Virus record (IMG/VR): IMGVR_UViG_648276652_000022
DNA: 10,631 nucleotides
Direction: 5' to 3' (one strand)
Source of the DNA: a virus
Lineage: Duplodnaviria > Heunggongvirae > Uroviricota > Caudoviricetes
Position 1 is the stretch's first letter, and each line of letters opens with the position of its first letter. Below, piece after piece: positions 2,623 to 9,367 of the stretch. The notes under the pieces are model-generated. The model saw only the letters and a list, made by a program, of their open reading frames with translations, was not told the DNA's origin and searched no databases. A program made the translations under genes and the position numbers.

Positions 2623-2849
2623 TTTCTTTCCTCTGTTATGCCATCACCCGCGCTCACCTGGACAGTATGCAGCGGAGACTGAAGAGCCGCAATGCAGGCT
2701 TGTCGTGTTGTGAGGTAAGGAGATTTATTCTTAGTGGGATCTTTGCGTGTTGCCTGAAGACGCCCTGTGCGTATCCAGTTAATGGCAGTCGGTCTGGATA
2801 TCTTGAGAAAATGACAGGCCTCATCGAGTGTGAGGCTGTATGGCTCCAT
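2499..2849 (-). CDS. xis: Excisionase (Xis), 116 aa
   Basis: Listed ORF 2499..2933 contains an internal ATG at 2849 ([29 protein letters not shown]...) giving a 116-aa product with an HTH-like N-terminus, matching P22 Xis size; its 3' end overlaps the int 5' end. The start is inferred, and the upstream extension is rejected. Confidence 0.8.
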
Positions 2850-3154
2850 TATTTCACCTCTTGTTGTGACATTGTTGAAAAATGGATACCTGCTCGTTGC
2901 TGCCAGACGATCCAACCGAGAGTCATATCCCATGCCATGTATTCGTTATCGCCGTTTTTTGCTCTCCGACGATCTACTAAGTCACCGAAACGCTTTTCCA
3001 TGAATAATTCATAAGCTTCGCGTTCATCTGGTTCTACTTCCAGAGATAGGAGTGCGATTTCATAAGCACGGCGCTAAATATCGTCTCGCACGTCAAGGCT
3101 GCTGATACGCTCTTTAATTTCTTTAATCAGTTCTTTGTCGGTAAAAGTGGTCAT
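2849..3154 (-). pseudogene. yfdT: yfdT-like prophage gene (101 codons) interrupted by an in-frame TAG at codon 27
   Basis: Hand translation of the minus strand from ATG (3154-3152): MTTFTDKELIKEIKERISSLDVRDDI-TAG-RRAYEIALLSLEVEPDEREAYELFMEKRFGDLVDRRRAKNGDNEYMAWDMTLGWIVWQQRAGIHFSTMSQQEVK-TAA. The frame stays open for 102 codons apart from the single amber at 3074..3076. Its start shares a base with the yfdS stop (TAATG) and its stop overlaps the xis ATG. No ATG/GTG/TTG restart follows the amber. Confidence 0.5.
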
Positions 3155-3516
3155 TATGCTCCAGCCTCCGGTGCTTTTGGCATTACTGCCCAGTGAGTGA
3201 TATTGACGTTTTCAAGGTCCCCGACCTGAAATGTCCACTGCCATTCTCCGGTTTCTTTTTGTCCCCAGGTGTACCAGAGAGAACGCCAGCCAATTAGCCA
3301 GCCTTCTCCGTTAGCATCGAATAACAAAACACTTTCATTTGCTGGTGGCAGTTCAGTTGACACTGGTATTACTTTGTTTTCCTGTGCTGCACATTTAGCT
3401 TCAAGCGCATCGAATTTACGCACCAGGTATTCAGCATCTGTTTCATTTACTTTCAGATCTCGCGGTACACATCTCCCACGAAGAAACCCTTCCATTTCGA
3501 AAACATTCATGCGCAT
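3154..3516 (-). CDS. yfdS: Prophage protein, Trp-rich C-terminus (DUF551-like), 120 aa
   Basis: 120-aa ORF; size and position after yfdR match the CPS-53 yfdS gene; C-terminal GWLIGW...WYTW...W pattern. The alternative start at 3510 forms an ATGA overlap with the yfdR stop. Confidence 0.7.
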   Translation of the reverse strand: MRMNVFEMEGFLRGRCVPRDLKVNETDAEYLVRKFDALEAKCAAQENKVIPVSTELPPANESVLLFDANGEGWLIGWRSLWYTWGQKETGEWQWTFQVGDLENVNITHWAVMPKAPEAGA

Positions 3517-5423: not shown

Positions 5424-5471
5424 TTTGCTGCTCCTCATCATATCGACCCTGCAAGGCCGATTAGTTTCTCC

Positions 5472-5560
5472 ACAAAACAGAGAAGAACACCTGCGGTGGC
5501 AGCCGCCCGGATGGATTGGGTTATGAGCCCGTCGTCCGGTGATGCTCTTCTCTGTTTTGT
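5472..5560. repeat. 15-bp perfect inverted repeat (ACAAAACAGAGAAGA / TCTTCTCTGTTTTGT) flanking a 59-bp GC-rich spacer
   Basis: Arms at 5472-5486 and 5546-5560 are exact reverse complements (checked base by base). They sit in a ~470 bp region without a convincing ORF. Confidence 0.6.
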
Positions 5561-5824
5561 AAAAAGGACGGTACCAGCCGGAAGCAAGGGTACAAACTGG
5601 TACCTCCAGGACTACACACAGCATAAAGTTGTGGTGCCGGGTGCCTCCCGGTGCCTGGCGAAGGTTGCACACCAGACGGGTGGGTATCCACAGAAGGTCG
5701 ACTGTCAGCCTCAACCTTAACCCGCGTGCGCTGAGCCGCATTCACCACAACGCTAAGGATTCTCTCTGGTTAAAAATACTTAGCTGTTATGTGCCTGCTT
5801 TTAGCCACATCAGGCGAGGTGGAC

Positions 5825-5877
5825 CTGGTTATTCCCCAACAACAAGGATTCGGTTAATCTGGTTATCCCCAACAACG
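5825..5877 (+). repeat. Two ~19-bp direct repeats CTGGTTAT(T)CCCCAACAAC immediately upstream of the 144-aa ORF
   Basis: Copies at 5825-5844 and 5859-5877 differ by one T; further CTGGTTA / CGGTTAA copies at 5766-5772 and 5851-5857. Candidate regulator-binding sites or promoter elements. Confidence 0.5.
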
Positions 5878-7735: not shown

Positions 7736-8305
7736 ATGAGGCTAACCGTGGGTAAGCATCACTGGAAAGTAGAAAAACAGCCTGAGTGGTACGTGAAAGC
7801 TGTCAGAAAAACTATCGCAAAGTTGCCGGGTGGTTACGCTGAAGCAGCTGACTGGCTGGATGTAACAGAGAACGCATTATTTAACCGCCTTCGTGCCGAT
7901 GGCGATCAGATTTTCCCGCTGGGATGGGCAATGATTTTGCAACGTGCTGGTGGAACTCACTTCATTGCTGACGCTGTGGCGCAGTCTGCAAATGGCGTCT
8001 TTGTGTCTCTTCCTGACGTCGAGGATGTGGACAACGCCGATATTAACCAGCGTCTGCTGGAAGTCATTGAACAGATCGGCAGTTATTCAAAACAGATTCG
8101 TTCAGCAATCGAAGACGGTGTAGTGGAACCGCATGAGAAGACAGCAATTAACGACGAGCTGTATCTCTCAATTTCGAAGCTGCAGGAGCATGCAGCACTG
8201 GTCTACAAAATCTTTTGCATTTCAGAAAGTAATGACGCCCGCGAGTGTGCAGCTCCGGGCGTCGTGGCGTCGATTGCTTCTGGTTGTGGAGAAACTAACG
8301 CATGA
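7736..8305 (+). CDS. Prophage regulatory protein, CII-like (CP76/YdaT-like family), 189 aa
   Basis: 189-aa ORF directly after the Cro-like gene. Family assignment is from recognition only. No Shine-Dalgarno before the ATG at 7736; the GTG at 7748 with GAGG 6 nt upstream is an alternative start. Confidence 0.55.
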   Translation: MRLTVGKHHWKVEKQPEWYVKAVRKTIAKLPGGYAEAADWLDVTENALFNRLRADGDQIFPLGWAMILQRAGGTHFIADAVAQSANGVFVSLPDVEDVDNADINQRLLEVIEQIGSYSKQIRSAIEDGVVEPHEKTAINDELYLSISKLQEHAALVYKIFCISESNDARECAAPGVVASIASGCGETNA

Positions 8306-9138
8306 ACAGTTTAACGGCAAATAACCGTTTGTCGCAACAGCTGGTGGTCAGCGTCGCTGAACACGTGTTGTTACGGCATGAATGCAGATTACCAAATCTC
8401 CTGGCTGTAAGTAACCACAGAGAACTTTACCTGACTGTGGGGGGCGAGTTGTGCAGGAACTTAACCGCTGGTTTCGTGACGGAAGAGGACTTTATGTTCA
8501 TGTTATTCGTTGGGAGCCAGAAACACAGCGCGTTATCTATCTTCGCAAAGACTACCCGCATGAGTGCTTTAGCCCTTTGTGGAAATTCAGGCGTGATTTT
8601 GTTGAGTGTGAAGGACCACCAGCACATTGATTCTGCCATTCCGGGACGTTACACTGTTCAGGCACCTTATAAAGCGGGTGCCGGGATTGGCGTCCTGGAA
8701 TTGATCAAGGCGATATATGACGCGCCAGCGTCTTTTTTATCGTCCGCATTTGCTCACATCAAAGTTATGGTGGGCTGGGCGGGGGCATCGAAAGATGCGC
8801 CGGTTTCCTTGATCACCGGTTACGCCAACCCCGTTCAGTTCACCACCAGCGAAATTGGCGTTTCCGGTGGTGGAAGTATTTCACCGATCAAGGAGGCTGC
8901 CATCATGGCTACTGTCCCAGCCCTCACTCGTCTGAATGATGAAGACTTACATAAACTCAGTTATGTAACAACTGCACTACGTGCTCTGCGCAAGGTAACT
9001 CTTTCGGATCCGCAGGCACATCAGGTTCTGGTAGAAACCCTTCTTAACTTGCAAGCTGAACGTATTCGTCTGGCGGATAAGGCTAATTTTCATATTCACC
9101 GTCTCCTGAATATCAGCGGAGGGCATCGTCATGCTTAA
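8302..9138 (+). CDS. Hypothetical protein (278-aa frame); the 5' part may be over-called, the 3' part (about 8631-9138) looks like genuine coding
   Basis: Continuous 278-codon frame with an ATGA overlap to the upstream gene. From about 8631 the codons look like typical E. coli coding sequence (GCG, GGC, GAA, ATC, AAA). An internal ATG at 8905 is preceded by AAGGAGG 8 nt upstream. Conflicts with a well-formed small ORF in another frame (8451-8630). Confidence 0.35.
   Translation: MNSLTANNRLSQQLVVSVAEHVLLRHECRLPNLLAVSNHRELYLTVGGELCRNLTAGFVTEEDFMFMLFVGSQKHSALSIFAKTTRMSALALCGNSGVILLSVKDHQHIDSAIPGRYTVQAPYKAGAGIGVLELIKAIYDAPASFLSSAFAHIKVMVGWAGASKDAPVSLITGYANPVQFTTSEIGVSGGGSISPIKEAAIMATVPALTRLNDEDLHKLSYVTTALRALRKVTLSDPQAHQVLVETLLNLQAERIRLADKANFHIHRLLNISGGHRHA
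8451..8630 (+). CDS. Small phage protein, DUF4222-like pattern, 59 aa, GTG start, in a different frame from the 278-aa ORF
   Basis: Hand translation: VQELNRWFRDGRGLYVHVIRWEPETQRVIYLRKDYPHECFSPLWKFRRDFVECEGPPAH, stop TGA at 8628-8630. It fits the small phage-protein pattern D.RG..V.V......RV.Y.R..Y..EC..P...F...F as I recall it. Absent from the ORF track (under 60 aa, GTG start). Confidence 0.4.
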   Translation: MQELNRWFRDGRGLYVHVIRWEPETQRVIYLRKDYPHECFSPLWKFRRDFVECEGPPAH

Positions 9139-9367
9139 TCCGTTGCTCCTCAACATTTACCGTTTATTTCAGCGTAAAAAAATATCAACACCCACAGTTG
9201 GGCAGTGGTACACCACGCCAGCAGGGCATGTTCTACGTGTCAGCCTGGTTGACTGTGAATGTCAGAAGGTGATTTGTGAACCGCTGGGCCGCAATTACCG
9301 CGTCAGTATGCCGCTTATTGCCTTTCGCTCCGGAAAAAACATGAAGCATCTCGGAGGTGCAGCATGA
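9131..9367 (+). CDS. Hypothetical small protein, 78 aa
   Basis: ORF overlapping the upstream stop (ATGCTTAA) and the downstream start (ATGA), consistent with a translationally coupled phage operon. No family recognised. Confidence 0.5.
   Translation: MLNPLLLNIYRLFQRKKISTPTVGQWYTTPAGHVLRVSLVDCECQKVICEPLGRNYRVSMPLIAFRSGKNMKHLGGAA

Follow-up and report, generated by a model that had tools for sequence, protein, structure and literature searches.

The 278-codon open reading frame of an SfV-like prophage probably combines a ymfM-like frame, a nested DUF4222 gene, an RNA immunity module, and a short regulated gene

The stretch of prophage DNA analysed here (the window, 10,631 nt) contains an ATG open reading frame (ORF) of 278 codons at positions 8302-9138, which raises the question of whether this ORF encodes one protein or covers several distinct elements. 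All features described below lie on the + strand. The window was 99.7% identical to SfV, in which the same ORF is orf37 ("immunity region"); the window is an SfV-like lambdoid prophage, and the 278-codon ORF sits in its early-right operon. Existing annotations disagree on this frame. The 278-aa version is called in many records (SfV orf37; "ash family protein" at NCBI), one RefSeq genome lists a DUF4222 protein and a 181-aa "ash" protein, and in another the whole frame is a 386-aa Rha protein. A preliminary description of the window had reported the long ORF, a small ORF in another frame at 8451-8630, and an AAGGAGG-N8-ATG start at 8905, all of which were found at these positions, and had offered, among other explanations, that the long ORF was over-called. 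Substitution patterns and the RNA genes within the ORF agree with that explanation. We consider, with a probability of roughly 0.7, that the 278-codon ORF is a composite of a ymfM-like frame, a nested DUF4222 gene, an RNA immunity module, and a regulated 77-codon gene, and is not one functional protein.

The gene immediately upstream, a ymfL-like (CII-like) gene at 7736..8305, matched the YmfL equivalog of NCBIfam (E 1.7e-49) and Phage_CP76 of Pfam, and was also present in the PGAP annotation of an identical prophage. No other match was obtained when all pieces of the locus were searched against NCBIfam. The TGA stop of the ymfL-like gene and the ATG of the long ORF share bases (ATGA, 8302-8305).

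The small ORF at 8451..8630 encodes 59 aa from a GTG start and is nested in the ymfM-like frame. It had been taken for a DUF4222-like small phage protein, which was confirmed by a match to Pfam PF13973 (E 9.5e-14; 51.1 bits against a cut-off of 27; profile positions 4-51 of 53), and PGAP lists the product as WP_001341559. The dN/dS of DUF4222 across genera was 0.07 with unsuppressed synonymous divergence (pS 0.66), in a comparison from which the ymfL control region was left out because it was misaligned. When polymorphisms were examined to see which frame is conserved, frame 0 was favoured: 11 of the 14 polymorphisms in 8451-8607 fell at position 3 of DUF4222 codons, and all of these were synonymous there and non-synonymous in frame 1. 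The start is conserved (ATG in 25 of 31 loci) and has its own Shine-Dalgarno sequence, which in the window is represented by a Shine-Dalgarno-like run of six G (8439-8444) 5' of the GTG at 8451. Furthermore, about 30 loci carried DUF4222 as a complete 59-aa unit that ends at its own stop, and DUF4222 preceded at least four unrelated downstream genes. DUF4222 at 8451-8630 is a genuine, separately initiated small gene. An AlphaFold2 model of the product (pLDDT 85) showed an SH3-like barrel, for which the structural matches were generic SH3/KOW/Tudor barrels only (E 0.05-0.8), giving no functional lead.

Two rival readings of the locus were weighed against these data. In the first, a programmed or mutational frameshift joins DUF4222 in frame 0 to the downstream frame 1, as had been suggested for 8600-8630; the overlap between the two frames amounts to 23-38 nt, and the G6 run lies upstream. 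A frameshift at either place was rejected because DUF4222 is autonomous, as its own start, its own stop, and its occurrence before unrelated genes indicate; a conserved slippery heptamer is absent, and the sequence downstream consists of the RNA genes described below. We regard this reading as scarcely credible. In the second, the 278-aa product called in SfV and in the NCBI records is one functional protein. The ORF was indeed unbroken in 80 of 82 loci of the same prophage type, and the call itself is frequent, but the substitution patterns already contradict a single protein: residues 50-102 are an out-of-frame reading of the strongly selected DUF4222 gene, with a dN/dS of 1.85 in relatives and 13 of 15 polymorphisms non-synonymous in frame 1, residues 1-49 evolve almost neutrally, and residues 117-201 correspond to the RNA genes. 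A single 278-aa protein is thus very improbable.

The composite reading begins with the 5' part of the ORF. Frame 1 at 8302..8607 ("type D") is homologous to ymfM of the e14 prophage and is divided into an N-terminal part outside the overlap (8302-8450) and a part shared with DUF4222 (8451-8607). A GGAG Shine-Dalgarno sequence (8288-8291) precedes its ATG, and the ATGA start on the ymfL stop, directly 3' of the CII-like gene, is identical to that of K-12 e14 ymfM. The window copy aligned in frame with type B ymfM, the sole difference in length being an 18-nt (6-codon) deletion, and the YmfM profile matched the 278-aa protein P0335, presumably of the window type, with an E of 3e-11. The region 8306-8450 had been described as intergenic; it is instead homologous, in frame and without frameshift, to the N-terminal coding part of ymfM, and a promoter and terminator scan of 8306-8450 found none. 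The palindromes that had hinted at an intergenic region carry no such meaning. AACACGTGTT was located at 8360-8369 as described, and it was present in one of 42 haplotypes of the prophage type, the remainder reading AACACCTGTT. The pair AACGG-N7-CCGTT was found at 8313-8329, one base from its reported place, and coincides with Thr and Arg codons that are conserved in the ymfM-like frame; its arms do not co-change in relatives. Both palindromes were accordingly rejected as operators or terminators.

Selection on the ymfM-like frame differed between lineages. In relatives, the N-terminal ~55 codons showed a dN/dS of 0.27-0.35, compared with about 1 in the other frames. In the window lineage, the corresponding value (pN/pS) was 0.8-0.96, and 7, 10, and 9 polymorphisms of the ymfM frame fell at codon positions 1, 2, and 3, respectively. 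The N-terminal part is therefore under purifying selection in relatives and almost neutral in the window lineage. The earlier suggestion of true overlapping genes holds for ymfM/DUF4222 in relatives. The conserved N-terminal motifs (QLR..P.PG, F.Y, W, NHSRA, and IVGV) are absent in the window, which reads QQLVVSVAEH..LRHE..NLLAVSNHRE. The stop of the ymfM frame, expected at ~8608-8610, is GTG in the window, and the frame continues to 9138. In the family, the ymfM frame normally has 108-113 codons and stops ~9 nt before the ATG of the next gene, and the window departs from both.

The part shared with DUF4222 was then considered as a dual-frame locus. No interruption of the ymfM frame was seen in any of the 34 loci, which came from about 10 genera. 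Reshuffling of synonymous DUF4222 codons left the frame open in only ~5% of trials per locus, compared with 31 of 31 real diverged loci; the nested arrangement exceeds chance. Codon choice in DUF4222 showed avoidance of stops in the other frame: Val before a codon beginning with A or G was GTG or GTA in 0 of 79 cases (18 of 47 elsewhere), and Leu before a codon beginning with A was CTG or TTG in 0 of 22 (28 of 41 elsewhere). DUF4222 codon 56 was always ATA, TTA, or CTA, which creates the ymfM stop. The 3' half of ymfM in relatives was stop-free, and its amino acids were not conserved. In an AlphaFold2 model of YmfM, residues 11-60 were confident and residues 61-108 disordered, and stand-alone N-domains of 53-68 aa formed about 40 representative clusters, for example a 63-aa gene in locus L128. 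Pfam has no family for YmfM types A, B, and C or for the N-terminal part of the window copy, and Foldseek, run with the YmfM model against PDB, gave nothing with an E below 2.

From these observations, ribosomes could enter the ymfM-like frame at the ATGA overlap with ymfL. In most relatives, they would translate a folded N-terminal domain of ~55 aa, followed by a disordered tail of ~53 aa, free of sequence constraint, across the DUF4222 gene, and would terminate at the conserved stop 9 nt 5' of the next ATG. The layout of the tail and the position of the stop fit translational coupling. A frame that is kept open and correctly terminated without amino-acid constraint suggests that translation itself, and not its product, is selected, and coupling may be the cause of the open ymfM frame. 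In the window lineage, the N-terminal motifs have been lost and the ymfM stop has disappeared. Overprinted phage genes with translational coupling are known from lambda (Rz/Rz1) and phiX174. Like these, the locus has one DNA stretch read in two frames, with one product conserved and the other disordered and free of sequence constraint; unlike these, the ymfM frame in the overlap appears to be kept just as an open, correctly terminated track and not for its peptide.

Downstream of DUF4222, frame 1 had been regarded as genuine coding sequence from about 8631. This did not stand: 8631-8904 fits two full-length Rfam families, and variants within alleles fell at codon positions 1, 2, and 3 in 9, 5, and 6 cases, with a synonymous to non-synonymous ratio (S:N) of 5:15 and no periodicity. 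The region 8627-8904 holds an RNA immunity module of the type known from P1 c4, P4 CI, and Gifsy-1 isrK. Its first element is a putative sigma-70 promoter (8627..8655) with TTGATT at 8627-8632, a 17-nt spacer, and TACACT at 8650-8655, from which transcription would start near 8662; the -35 element includes the DUF4222 stop codon. In 13 loci with unrelated phage surroundings, the position of both promoter hexamers with respect to the 5' end of isrK was conserved, and the PisrK promoter of Gifsy-1 has been defined by experiment (PMC4825925).

The IsrK-like sRNA at 8662..8738, the equivalent of the P4 seqA region, matched Rfam RF01394 over its full length (64.2 bits against a gathering score of 50; E 1e-13). 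It contains target a1 (UUGGCG, 8687-8692) in a hairpin loop and target b1 (GAUCAAGG, 8703-8710), and the terminator scan placed an intrinsic terminator at 8719-8738, consisting of a hairpin (8719-8732) and a U run. The c4-a1b1 model scored 21.4 bits here (gathering score 46.7) and 50 bits in relatives; a match to Rfam mir-3116 (21.9 bits against a gathering score of 65) was attributed to the IsrK hairpins and set aside. The second RNA, a C4/CI-type antisense RNA at 8763..8850, matched RF01695 at model positions 1-87 of 87 (82.3 bits against a gathering score of 45; E 7e-17). The loop of its hairpin 2 carries b' (CCUUGAUC, 8807-8814), complementary to GAUCAAGG at b1 and b2, and its junction carries a' (CGCCAA, 8823-8828), complementary to UUGGCG at a1 and a2. 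Target a2 (UUGGCG, 8855-8860) lies 3' of C4, and target b2 (GAUCAAGG, 8886-8893) extends into AAGGAGG (8890-8896), the Shine-Dalgarno sequence of the gene at 8905.

Covariation supported the pairing of both the C4 structure and its targets. All 270 of 270 pair cells of C4 were standard across 10 alleles, with double (compensatory) changes at nine pairs, whereas slid controls gave 34-50%. Across seven alleles, b1, b', and b2 co-varied three ways, and a' co-varied with a2. The isrK and C4 pair was present in 13 further loci; other phages have the module between genes, with the following gene beginning 34-54 nt after C4, and in four phages stops occur in all frames. According to this arrangement, the putative promoter would yield a short IsrK-like RNA with a1 and b1 that ends at the terminator, and read-through transcripts would include the C4-like RNA, whose a' and b' could pair with a2 and b2. 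Pairing at b2 would cover the Shine-Dalgarno sequence of the 8905 gene, so that C4 would repress this gene, as homology with P1 and Gifsy-1 suggests.

The same stretch carries the Ash annotation. Pfam PF10554 (Phage_ASH) matched residues 117-210 of the 278-aa ORF at 68 bits (cut-off 26), a footprint (nt 8650-8931) that coincides with the IsrK and C4 module. The Phage_ASH model also matched the obsolete "cI" CDS of P4, over an Rfam C4 match, the P4 CI RNA. A genuine Ash domain dual-coded with the RNA genes, in the form of a 176-181-aa regulator starting from GTG at 8593 or 8608 (PGAP, PHROG 3960), is nevertheless to be weighed, since PF10554 scores above its threshold, phrog_3960 spans aa 103-278, the homologue in locus L118 has an ATG at the equivalent position, and no SfV-context allele interrupts the frame. 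Against such a protein, the within-allele S:N and missing codon periodicity given above showed no selection at the amino-acid level, and the differences between alleles compensate RNA pairing and target complementarity and are not amino-acid conservative. The same module is intergenic in the four other phages with stops in every frame, the Pfam model matches the P4 "cI" CDS at the site of CI RNA, and 8593 and 8608 have no ATG and are preceded by a weak Shine-Dalgarno-like sequence only. An Ash protein is therefore improbable; selection in this stretch was seen on RNA pairing, and PF10554 appears to be the conceptual translation of an RNA immunity locus.

The last element of the composite is the regulated gene of 77 aa at 8905..9138, in the position of icd/ant/anrP, with AAGGAGG (8890-8896) separated by 8 nt from the ATG. 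That 8905 is a real gene start, as the preliminary description held, was upheld. Variants in the ORF fell at codon positions 1, 2, and 3 in 10, 1, and 10 cases, with an S:N of 11:10 (p 0.006 against neutral; related sequences are counted as independent in the Fisher and binomial tests of this analysis). The homologous gene of F039, VT2-Sakai, and a Klebsiella phage begins 45-54 nt after C4 and is preceded by stops. Thus, the 8905 ORF is a real coding gene. Sister alleles carry a Rha-type antirepressor in place of the 77-aa protein, with the pRha domain beginning at residue 21 as counted from the same ATG. The 77-aa product had no match in Pfam or NCBIfam, and tblastn against 50,697 phage records found it in SfV-like phages only and found no link to P1 Icd. 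Because similarity was confined to SfV-like phages, an Icd-like role would be positional. The stop of this gene (9136-9138) overlaps the next ATG (9131), which opens a weakly DUF4222-like ORF of 78 aa (9131..9367) whose own stop overlaps the ATG of the replication initiator (9364). This ORF matched phrog_1153 (E 7e-40), with weak cross matches to the DUF4222 phrog, and gave an E of 0.011 in BLASTP against the 59-aa DUF4222 protein.

The module resembles known immunity systems to different extents. The isrK-orf45-anrP locus of Gifsy-1 (Hershko-Shalev et al. 2016, PMC4825925) has the same order of promoter, 77-nt IsrK with intrinsic terminator, leader ORF, and effector; the leader AUG lies about 105 nt from the RNA start in both, the Rfam isrK model matches the window in full length, and the sister alleles of the window carry Rha/antirepressor-type effectors. 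The first AUG of Gifsy-1 orf45, at +107 of the isrK transcript, is equivalent to 8767-8768 in the window; this ORF is translated, its translation is coupled to that of anrP, and the two are fused in S. dysenteriae (PMC4825925). By analogy, a putative orf45-like leader frame can be assigned to 8767..8904, with its AUG in the 5' end of C4 and in frame with the 8905 gene without an intervening stop. In contrast to Gifsy-1, the module of the window lies inside the early-right operon, flanked by the cII-like gene and the replication genes. A single in-frame fusion links the upstream ymfM-like frame, the leader frame, and the effector, and the effector is an unrelated 77-aa protein and not an antirepressor (Ant, Rha, or AnrP).

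In the immI operon of P1 and P7, the c4 antisense RNA precedes icd and ant, and P4 has a CI RNA immunity with seqA and seqC. Compared by means of Rfam RF01695 and RF03163, the window shares with both a C4-type RNA with two recognition sequences, targets upstream (a1/b1) and downstream (a2/b2), and a downstream target lying over the ribosome-binding site of the gene that follows; as in the heteroimmune P1 and P7, the recognition sequences are allele-specific. Unlike P1 and P4, the element of the window is lambdoid and has an additional CI/Cro-type immunity.

The RNA stretch may be translated on operon transcripts, and not be simply non-coding, because frame 1 across 8623-8766 contained no stop in 24 unique alleles with 103 distinct variants (P about 0.03, with the alleles sharing ancestry) and because in L128 the frame through the module opens at an ATG overlapping the stop of the upstream gene, a short ymfM. 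A fuller alternative is that early-right transcripts translate the whole 278-codon frame and that the passage of ribosomes matters and not the peptide. Ribosomes crossing the IsrK terminator, C4, and a2/b2 would then block folding of the RNAs and carry translation to the 77-aa, 78-aa, and replication genes, whereas transcripts from the internal promoter, lacking the start codon, would fold into the immunity RNAs. Besides the missing stops and L128, this agrees with the continuous stop/start overlaps from ymfL (8302) through the 278-codon frame (9136-9138/9131) and the 78-aa ORF (ATGA, 9364) to the replication gene, and with the D- and E-type lineages, which hold the frame open despite a pN/pS of 0.8-0.96. 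In locus L119 the frame stops 2 nt 5' of the next ATG, copies of the module outside the early-right operon context have stops in every frame, and translation of Gifsy-1 anrP requires that of orf45 across the C4-like stretch (PMC4825925). However, the statistical support is modest given the shared ancestry, the GC-rich RNA sequence in itself lowers the frequency of stops, and in L118 an inserted toxin-antitoxin pair precedes the module, which has an uncoupled ATG of its own. We regard translation of the entire frame as a possibility to be taken seriously, clearly behind the composite reading.

The composite reading also bears on e14. According to Ansari et al. (bioRxiv 10.1101/2020.11.19.390815), the ymfM gene of e14 (b1148) encodes SfiC, a division inhibitor induced by the SOS response; in K-12, its expression is reported to inhibit Z-ring formation. 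The gene resembles the frame of the window in position, in the ATGA start on the ymfL stop, in in-frame homology, and in a nested DUF4222 ORF in the same relative frame, which is unannotated in K-12 (NC_000913.3, 1204001-1204180) and has a TTG start at 1204001 and an AAGGAG sequence. The frame of the window differs by the 18-nt deletion, loss of the conserved PVPG, Trp, and Cys, almost neutral evolution, and the missing stop codon. Since "the open reading frame" is stated as cloned, pBAD-ymfM would carry 53 of the 59 DUF4222 codons. Over-expression and deletion, as published, act on both ORFs at once and cannot separate YmfM from the nested DUF4222. A tentative and rather unlikely extension, taken as a whole, is that ymfM/DUF4222 is a conserved dual-frame locus in whose overlap the ymfM frame serves only as a ribosome track, that SfiC might wholly or partly be the nested DUF4222 protein, and that in SfV-like phages the track has been extended in frame across the RNA module so that early-right translation would override RNA immunity.

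Taken together, these findings have consequences for annotation. The labels "ash family protein", "Rha family protein", and "immunity region" stand in hundreds of E. coli, Shigella, and Salmonella genomes, where they mask two RNA genes and misplace the start of a regulated antirepressor-type gene, and PF10554 merits review by curators. The K-12 reference annotates ymfM as a cell-division inhibitor and omits the strongly conserved nested DUF4222, whereas the automatic pipeline of NCBI does the opposite. As the published experiments hit both ORFs, the identity of SfiC could be resolved by a few frame-specific mutants. The ymfM/DUF4222 locus is a clear natural case of a frame held open and correctly terminated without constraint on its amino acids.

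The window is a lambdoid prophage that adjoins proA and tRNA-Thr and has an early region of the e14/SfV type, ordered as S24 repressor (ymfK), cro-like ymfT, CII-like ymfL (7736-8305), a composite ORF, a 78-aa ORF, and an O-like replication gene. As described preliminarily, the composite ORF extends from an ATG at 8302 to 9138 with 278 codons (frame 1), and a 59-codon ORF starting with GTG lies within it in another frame (frame 0, 8451-8630). The AAGGAGG sequence at 8890-8896, followed by 8 nt and ATG 8905, and the palindrome AACACGTGTT at 8360-8369 were also found in place; AACGG-N7-CCGTT was present, at 8313-8329, one base away from the earlier reading. The same 278-codon ORF is orf37 of SfV, annotated as 'immunity region', and the identity to SfV was 99.7% over 8631-8931. 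Public annotation of this stretch is self-contradictory: PGAP gave DUF4222 and a 181-aa 'ash family protein' in one genome, and in another called the whole frame a 386-aa 'Rha family' protein with DUF4222 not called, and the lengths called from this DNA in the protein databases are 278, 214, 192, 181, and 174 aa. Elsewhere, at the position of about 5438-5748 (- strand), PGAP marked a frameshifted hypothetical gene in strain 20A24, whose prophage is identical (locus 5539-5849).

The frame-0 ORF is a genuine gene. Its product, which had been recognized as DUF4222-like, matched Pfam DUF4222 (E 9.5e-14), and full-length relatives were found in Escherichia, Salmonella, Citrobacter, Kosakonia, Enterobacter, Kluyvera, and further genera. 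In 16 indel-free loci, dN/dS was 0.07 (pS 0.66) for DUF4222 and 1.85 for the frame-1 reading of the same DNA. Polymorphism in 8451-8607 among 82 loci of the window's type also favoured frame 0: 11 of 14 variants were located at DUF4222 third positions (binomial p 7e-4), all 11 being synonymous in DUF4222 and non-synonymous in frame 1. AlphaFold2 gave a confident model of a small SH3-like barrel (pLDDT 85). At the comparison locus L117 (1774-2680), DUF4222 is directly behind a Rha-family gene without ymfL or ymfM upstream, indicating that it moves as its own module.

The 5' part of frame 1 is a homologue of e14 ymfM. K-12 ymfM (b1148) has 112 codons and starts at an ATGA on the ymfL stop, as in the window, and contains in the same relative frame an unannotated 59-codon DUF4222 ORF (NC_000913.3 1204001-1204180; 4002-4181 of locus L002) with a TTG start and AAGGAG 8 nt upstream. 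The curated MG1655 record has no feature for this conserved ORF; in BW25113 (L003), PGAP annotated DUF4222 (WP_001250269) and not ymfM. The ymfM frame was open for 109-134 codons in 34/34 loci, and the third frame was closed. The N-terminal, non-overlapping part of ymfM fell into four types: A (that of K-12), B (the commonest), C (a third variant), and D (that of the window). The dN/dS values of this part in the ymfM frame were 0.27, 0.35, and 0.35 for B (20 sequences), A, and C, respectively, and those in the other two frames were about 1 or more. In the AlphaFold2 model of type-B YmfM, residues 11-60 formed three strands and a helix with confidence (pLDDT about 90), and residues 61-108, exactly the DUF4222 overlap, had a pLDDT below 50. 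A YmfM profile matched 116 clusters among 1.8 billion representative proteins, about 40 of which were 53-68-aa proteins with the match limited to the N-domain, and a phage without DUF4222 (L128) carries a complete 63-codon N-domain gene, flanked by a ymfL-like gene and the next ORF. From these stand-alone N-domain proteins and the disordered tail in the model, it follows that the protein unit of YmfM is the N-domain, and that the tail across DUF4222 is an extension.

When synonymous codons were reshuffled, the ymfM frame was open across DUF4222 in about 5% of the trials, and it was open in 31/31 real loci. Valine before an A- or G-starting codon of DUF4222 was always GTT/GTC (79/79), with GTG/GTA at 18/47 elsewhere in the gene, and leucine before an A-starting codon was CTG/TTG in 0/22 cases versus 28/41 (stop-avoidance p-values treat sequences as independent and are indicative only). 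DUF4222 codon 56 was always either the rare ATA (19/19) or TTA/CTA (8/8), and it forms the ymfM stop, which lies 9 nt ahead of the ATG of the next gene; that ATG is in the same frame as ymfM. Taken together, the open frame, the stop avoidance, and the fixed stop point to selection on translation of the ymfM frame (coupling, avoiding in-frame fusion), not on the peptide.

This pattern is degraded in type D, the window's lineage. Type D aligned in frame with type B, with an 18-nt deletion that takes out the DUF4222 Shine-Dalgarno sequence (CGGAGGG) along with part of the helix predicted for YmfM, and the conserved PVPG, Trp, and Cys positions were substituted. In the N-terminal part, pN/pS was 0.8-0.96, and type-D polymorphism was spread over codon positions 1, 2, and 3 without periodicity (7, 10, and 9 variants, respectively). 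The ymfM stop was lost (ATAG to GTGTG; E-I-E to E-C-E in DUF4222), and consequently the frame runs on; it was still open in 80/82 type-D loci. Divergent loci of the D/E type (L005, L118, and L119) also kept it open, its stop in L119 being 2 nt upstream of the next ATG. In L118 (Salmonella), a Gp49/HTH toxin-antitoxin-like pair (2696-3323) is inserted on the opposite strand between DUF4222 and the isrK-C4 RNA module described below, and frame 1 is open for 628 codons across and antisense to the pair, probably by chance. The 284-aa protein P0059 is a recombinant: its N-terminus is that of type-B ymfM, and from a point inside DUF4222 it continues as the window-type junction and RNA module; thus, recombination breakpoints fall within the overlapping genes.

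The long frame had been considered genuine coding from about 8631. This was not borne out, since synonymous and non-synonymous within-allele variants in 8623-8904 numbered 5:15, with 9, 5, and 6 by codon position. Instead, the 'Ash' part of the ORF is an RNA module. Rfam models matched IsrK RNA at 8662-8738 (64.2 bits, gathering score 50) and C4 antisense RNA at 8763-8850 (82.3 bits, gathering score 45), both in full length and, like all elements of the module, on the + strand. IsrK ends with a terminator (hairpin 8719-8732, then a U run), and upstream of its 5' end is a putative promoter (TTGATT 8627-8632, 17-nt spacer, TACACT 8650-8655), the hexamer position of which was kept in 13 loci, including VT2-Sakai, Stx phage F039, a Klebsiella phage, and an Actinobacillus phage. 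Two copies of GAUCAAGG, at 8703-8710 (b1) and 8886-8893 (b2), are complementary to the C4 hairpin-2 loop (b', CCUUGAUC, 8807-8814), and b2 overlaps the Shine-Dalgarno sequence. Likewise, UUGGCG at 8687-8692 (a1) and 8855-8860 (a2) is complementary to the C4 junction (a', CGCCAA, 8823-8828). This target geometry matches that of P1/P7 c4-icd-ant. The b sequences (7-9 nt) differed among seven alleles, with b1, b', and b2 changing together, and a' and a2 also changed together in 2/7. In ten alleles, 270/270 pair cells of the C4 structure were standard pairs, with both sides changed in 9 pairs; slid controls were 34-50% paired. Furthermore, every frame of this isrK-C4 stretch contains stops in F039, VT2-Sakai, Klebsiella phage ST11-OXA245phi3.2, and Actinobacillus phage pPE4, where the start of the next gene is 34-54 nt downstream of C4.

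The match to Pfam Phage_ASH, at ORF residues 117-210 (nt 8650-8931), coincides with this module. Another match of this model (E 4e-16) was to an old CDS of P4, the 'cI gene product', which contains an Rfam C4 match corresponding to the P4 CI RNA, with an isrK/seqA match just upstream. Accordingly, Phage_ASH looks like the conceptual translation of an RNA immunity locus. The P4 RefSeq record NC_001609.1 (L127 8168-8584) still has the CDS 'transcriptional repressor, cI gene product' over the Rfam C4/CI RNA.

The element order and RNAs are the same as those of Gifsy-1 isrK-orf45-anrP. There, IsrK is a 77-nt sRNA with its own promoter and a processed stable RNA downstream, and the leader ORF orf45 starts at +107, is translated and coupled to anrP, and is conserved in nucleotide but not amino-acid sequence; in S. 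dysenteriae, orf45 and anrP are fused, and the authors drew the P4 seqA/CI analogy (PMC4825925). The orf45 start corresponds approximately to ATG 8767 of the window, within the C4 5' end.

The strong internal start at 8905 proved to be real, as indicated by the coding pattern of the 77-codon ORF (10, 1, and 10 variants by codon position, p 0.006; synonymous to non-synonymous 11:10) and by sister alleles, in which a normal Rha-type protein starts at the equivalent ATG, with the pRha domain from residue 21, in agreement with the separately annotated F039 gene. The 77-aa product was found in SfV-like phages only and matched no family in Pfam or NCBIfam. A 20-nt block, GAGGCTGCCATCATGGCTAC, in the 8885-8915 region was invariant among relatives, although its flanks are highly variable, with the b2 alleles on the upstream side and the effectors (77-aa or Rha-type) on the downstream side; it looks like both a translation start region and a junction for module exchange. 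The 78-aa ORF after this gene (9131-9367), whose stop overlaps the replication-gene ATG (ATGA at 9364), was weakly DUF4222-like (BLASTP E 0.011 versus the 59-aa protein) and matched phrog_1153, from which there were cross hits to the phrog of DUF4222. Judging from this weak likeness, two paralogous small proteins of the barrel kind may be encoded in the operon, each immediately ahead of a module boundary.

YmfM was assigned as SfiC by cloning ymfM, 'the open reading frame', in pBAD24, by a lambda-Red ymfM deletion, and from library clones spanning part of ymfL through part of ymfN (bioRxiv 10.1101/2020.11.19.390815). None of these experiments separates the ymfM and DUF4222 frames; if the pBAD24 insert was the annotated ymfM ORF, it would include the DUF4222 Shine-Dalgarno sequence, start, and 53 of 59 codons. 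At L017 (3001-3180; Phytobacter sp. V91), DUF4222 is interrupted at codon 7 by a premature stop and the overlapping ymfM frame is intact (114 codons), which makes this locus a natural 'ymfM only' variant.

Finally, frame 1 may not be just a by-product. From the DUF4222 stop to the orf45 AUG, none of 103 distinct variants gave a frame-1 stop (24 unique alleles; P about 0.03). In L128, the frame through the RNA module opens with an ATG overlapping the short ymfM stop, and in the window stop/start overlaps are present at every junction from ymfL to the replication gene. The lack of frame-1 stops, the L128 ATG, and these overlaps suggest that read-through may occur, in which ribosomes from the early right promoter may pass the terminator and the antisense site.
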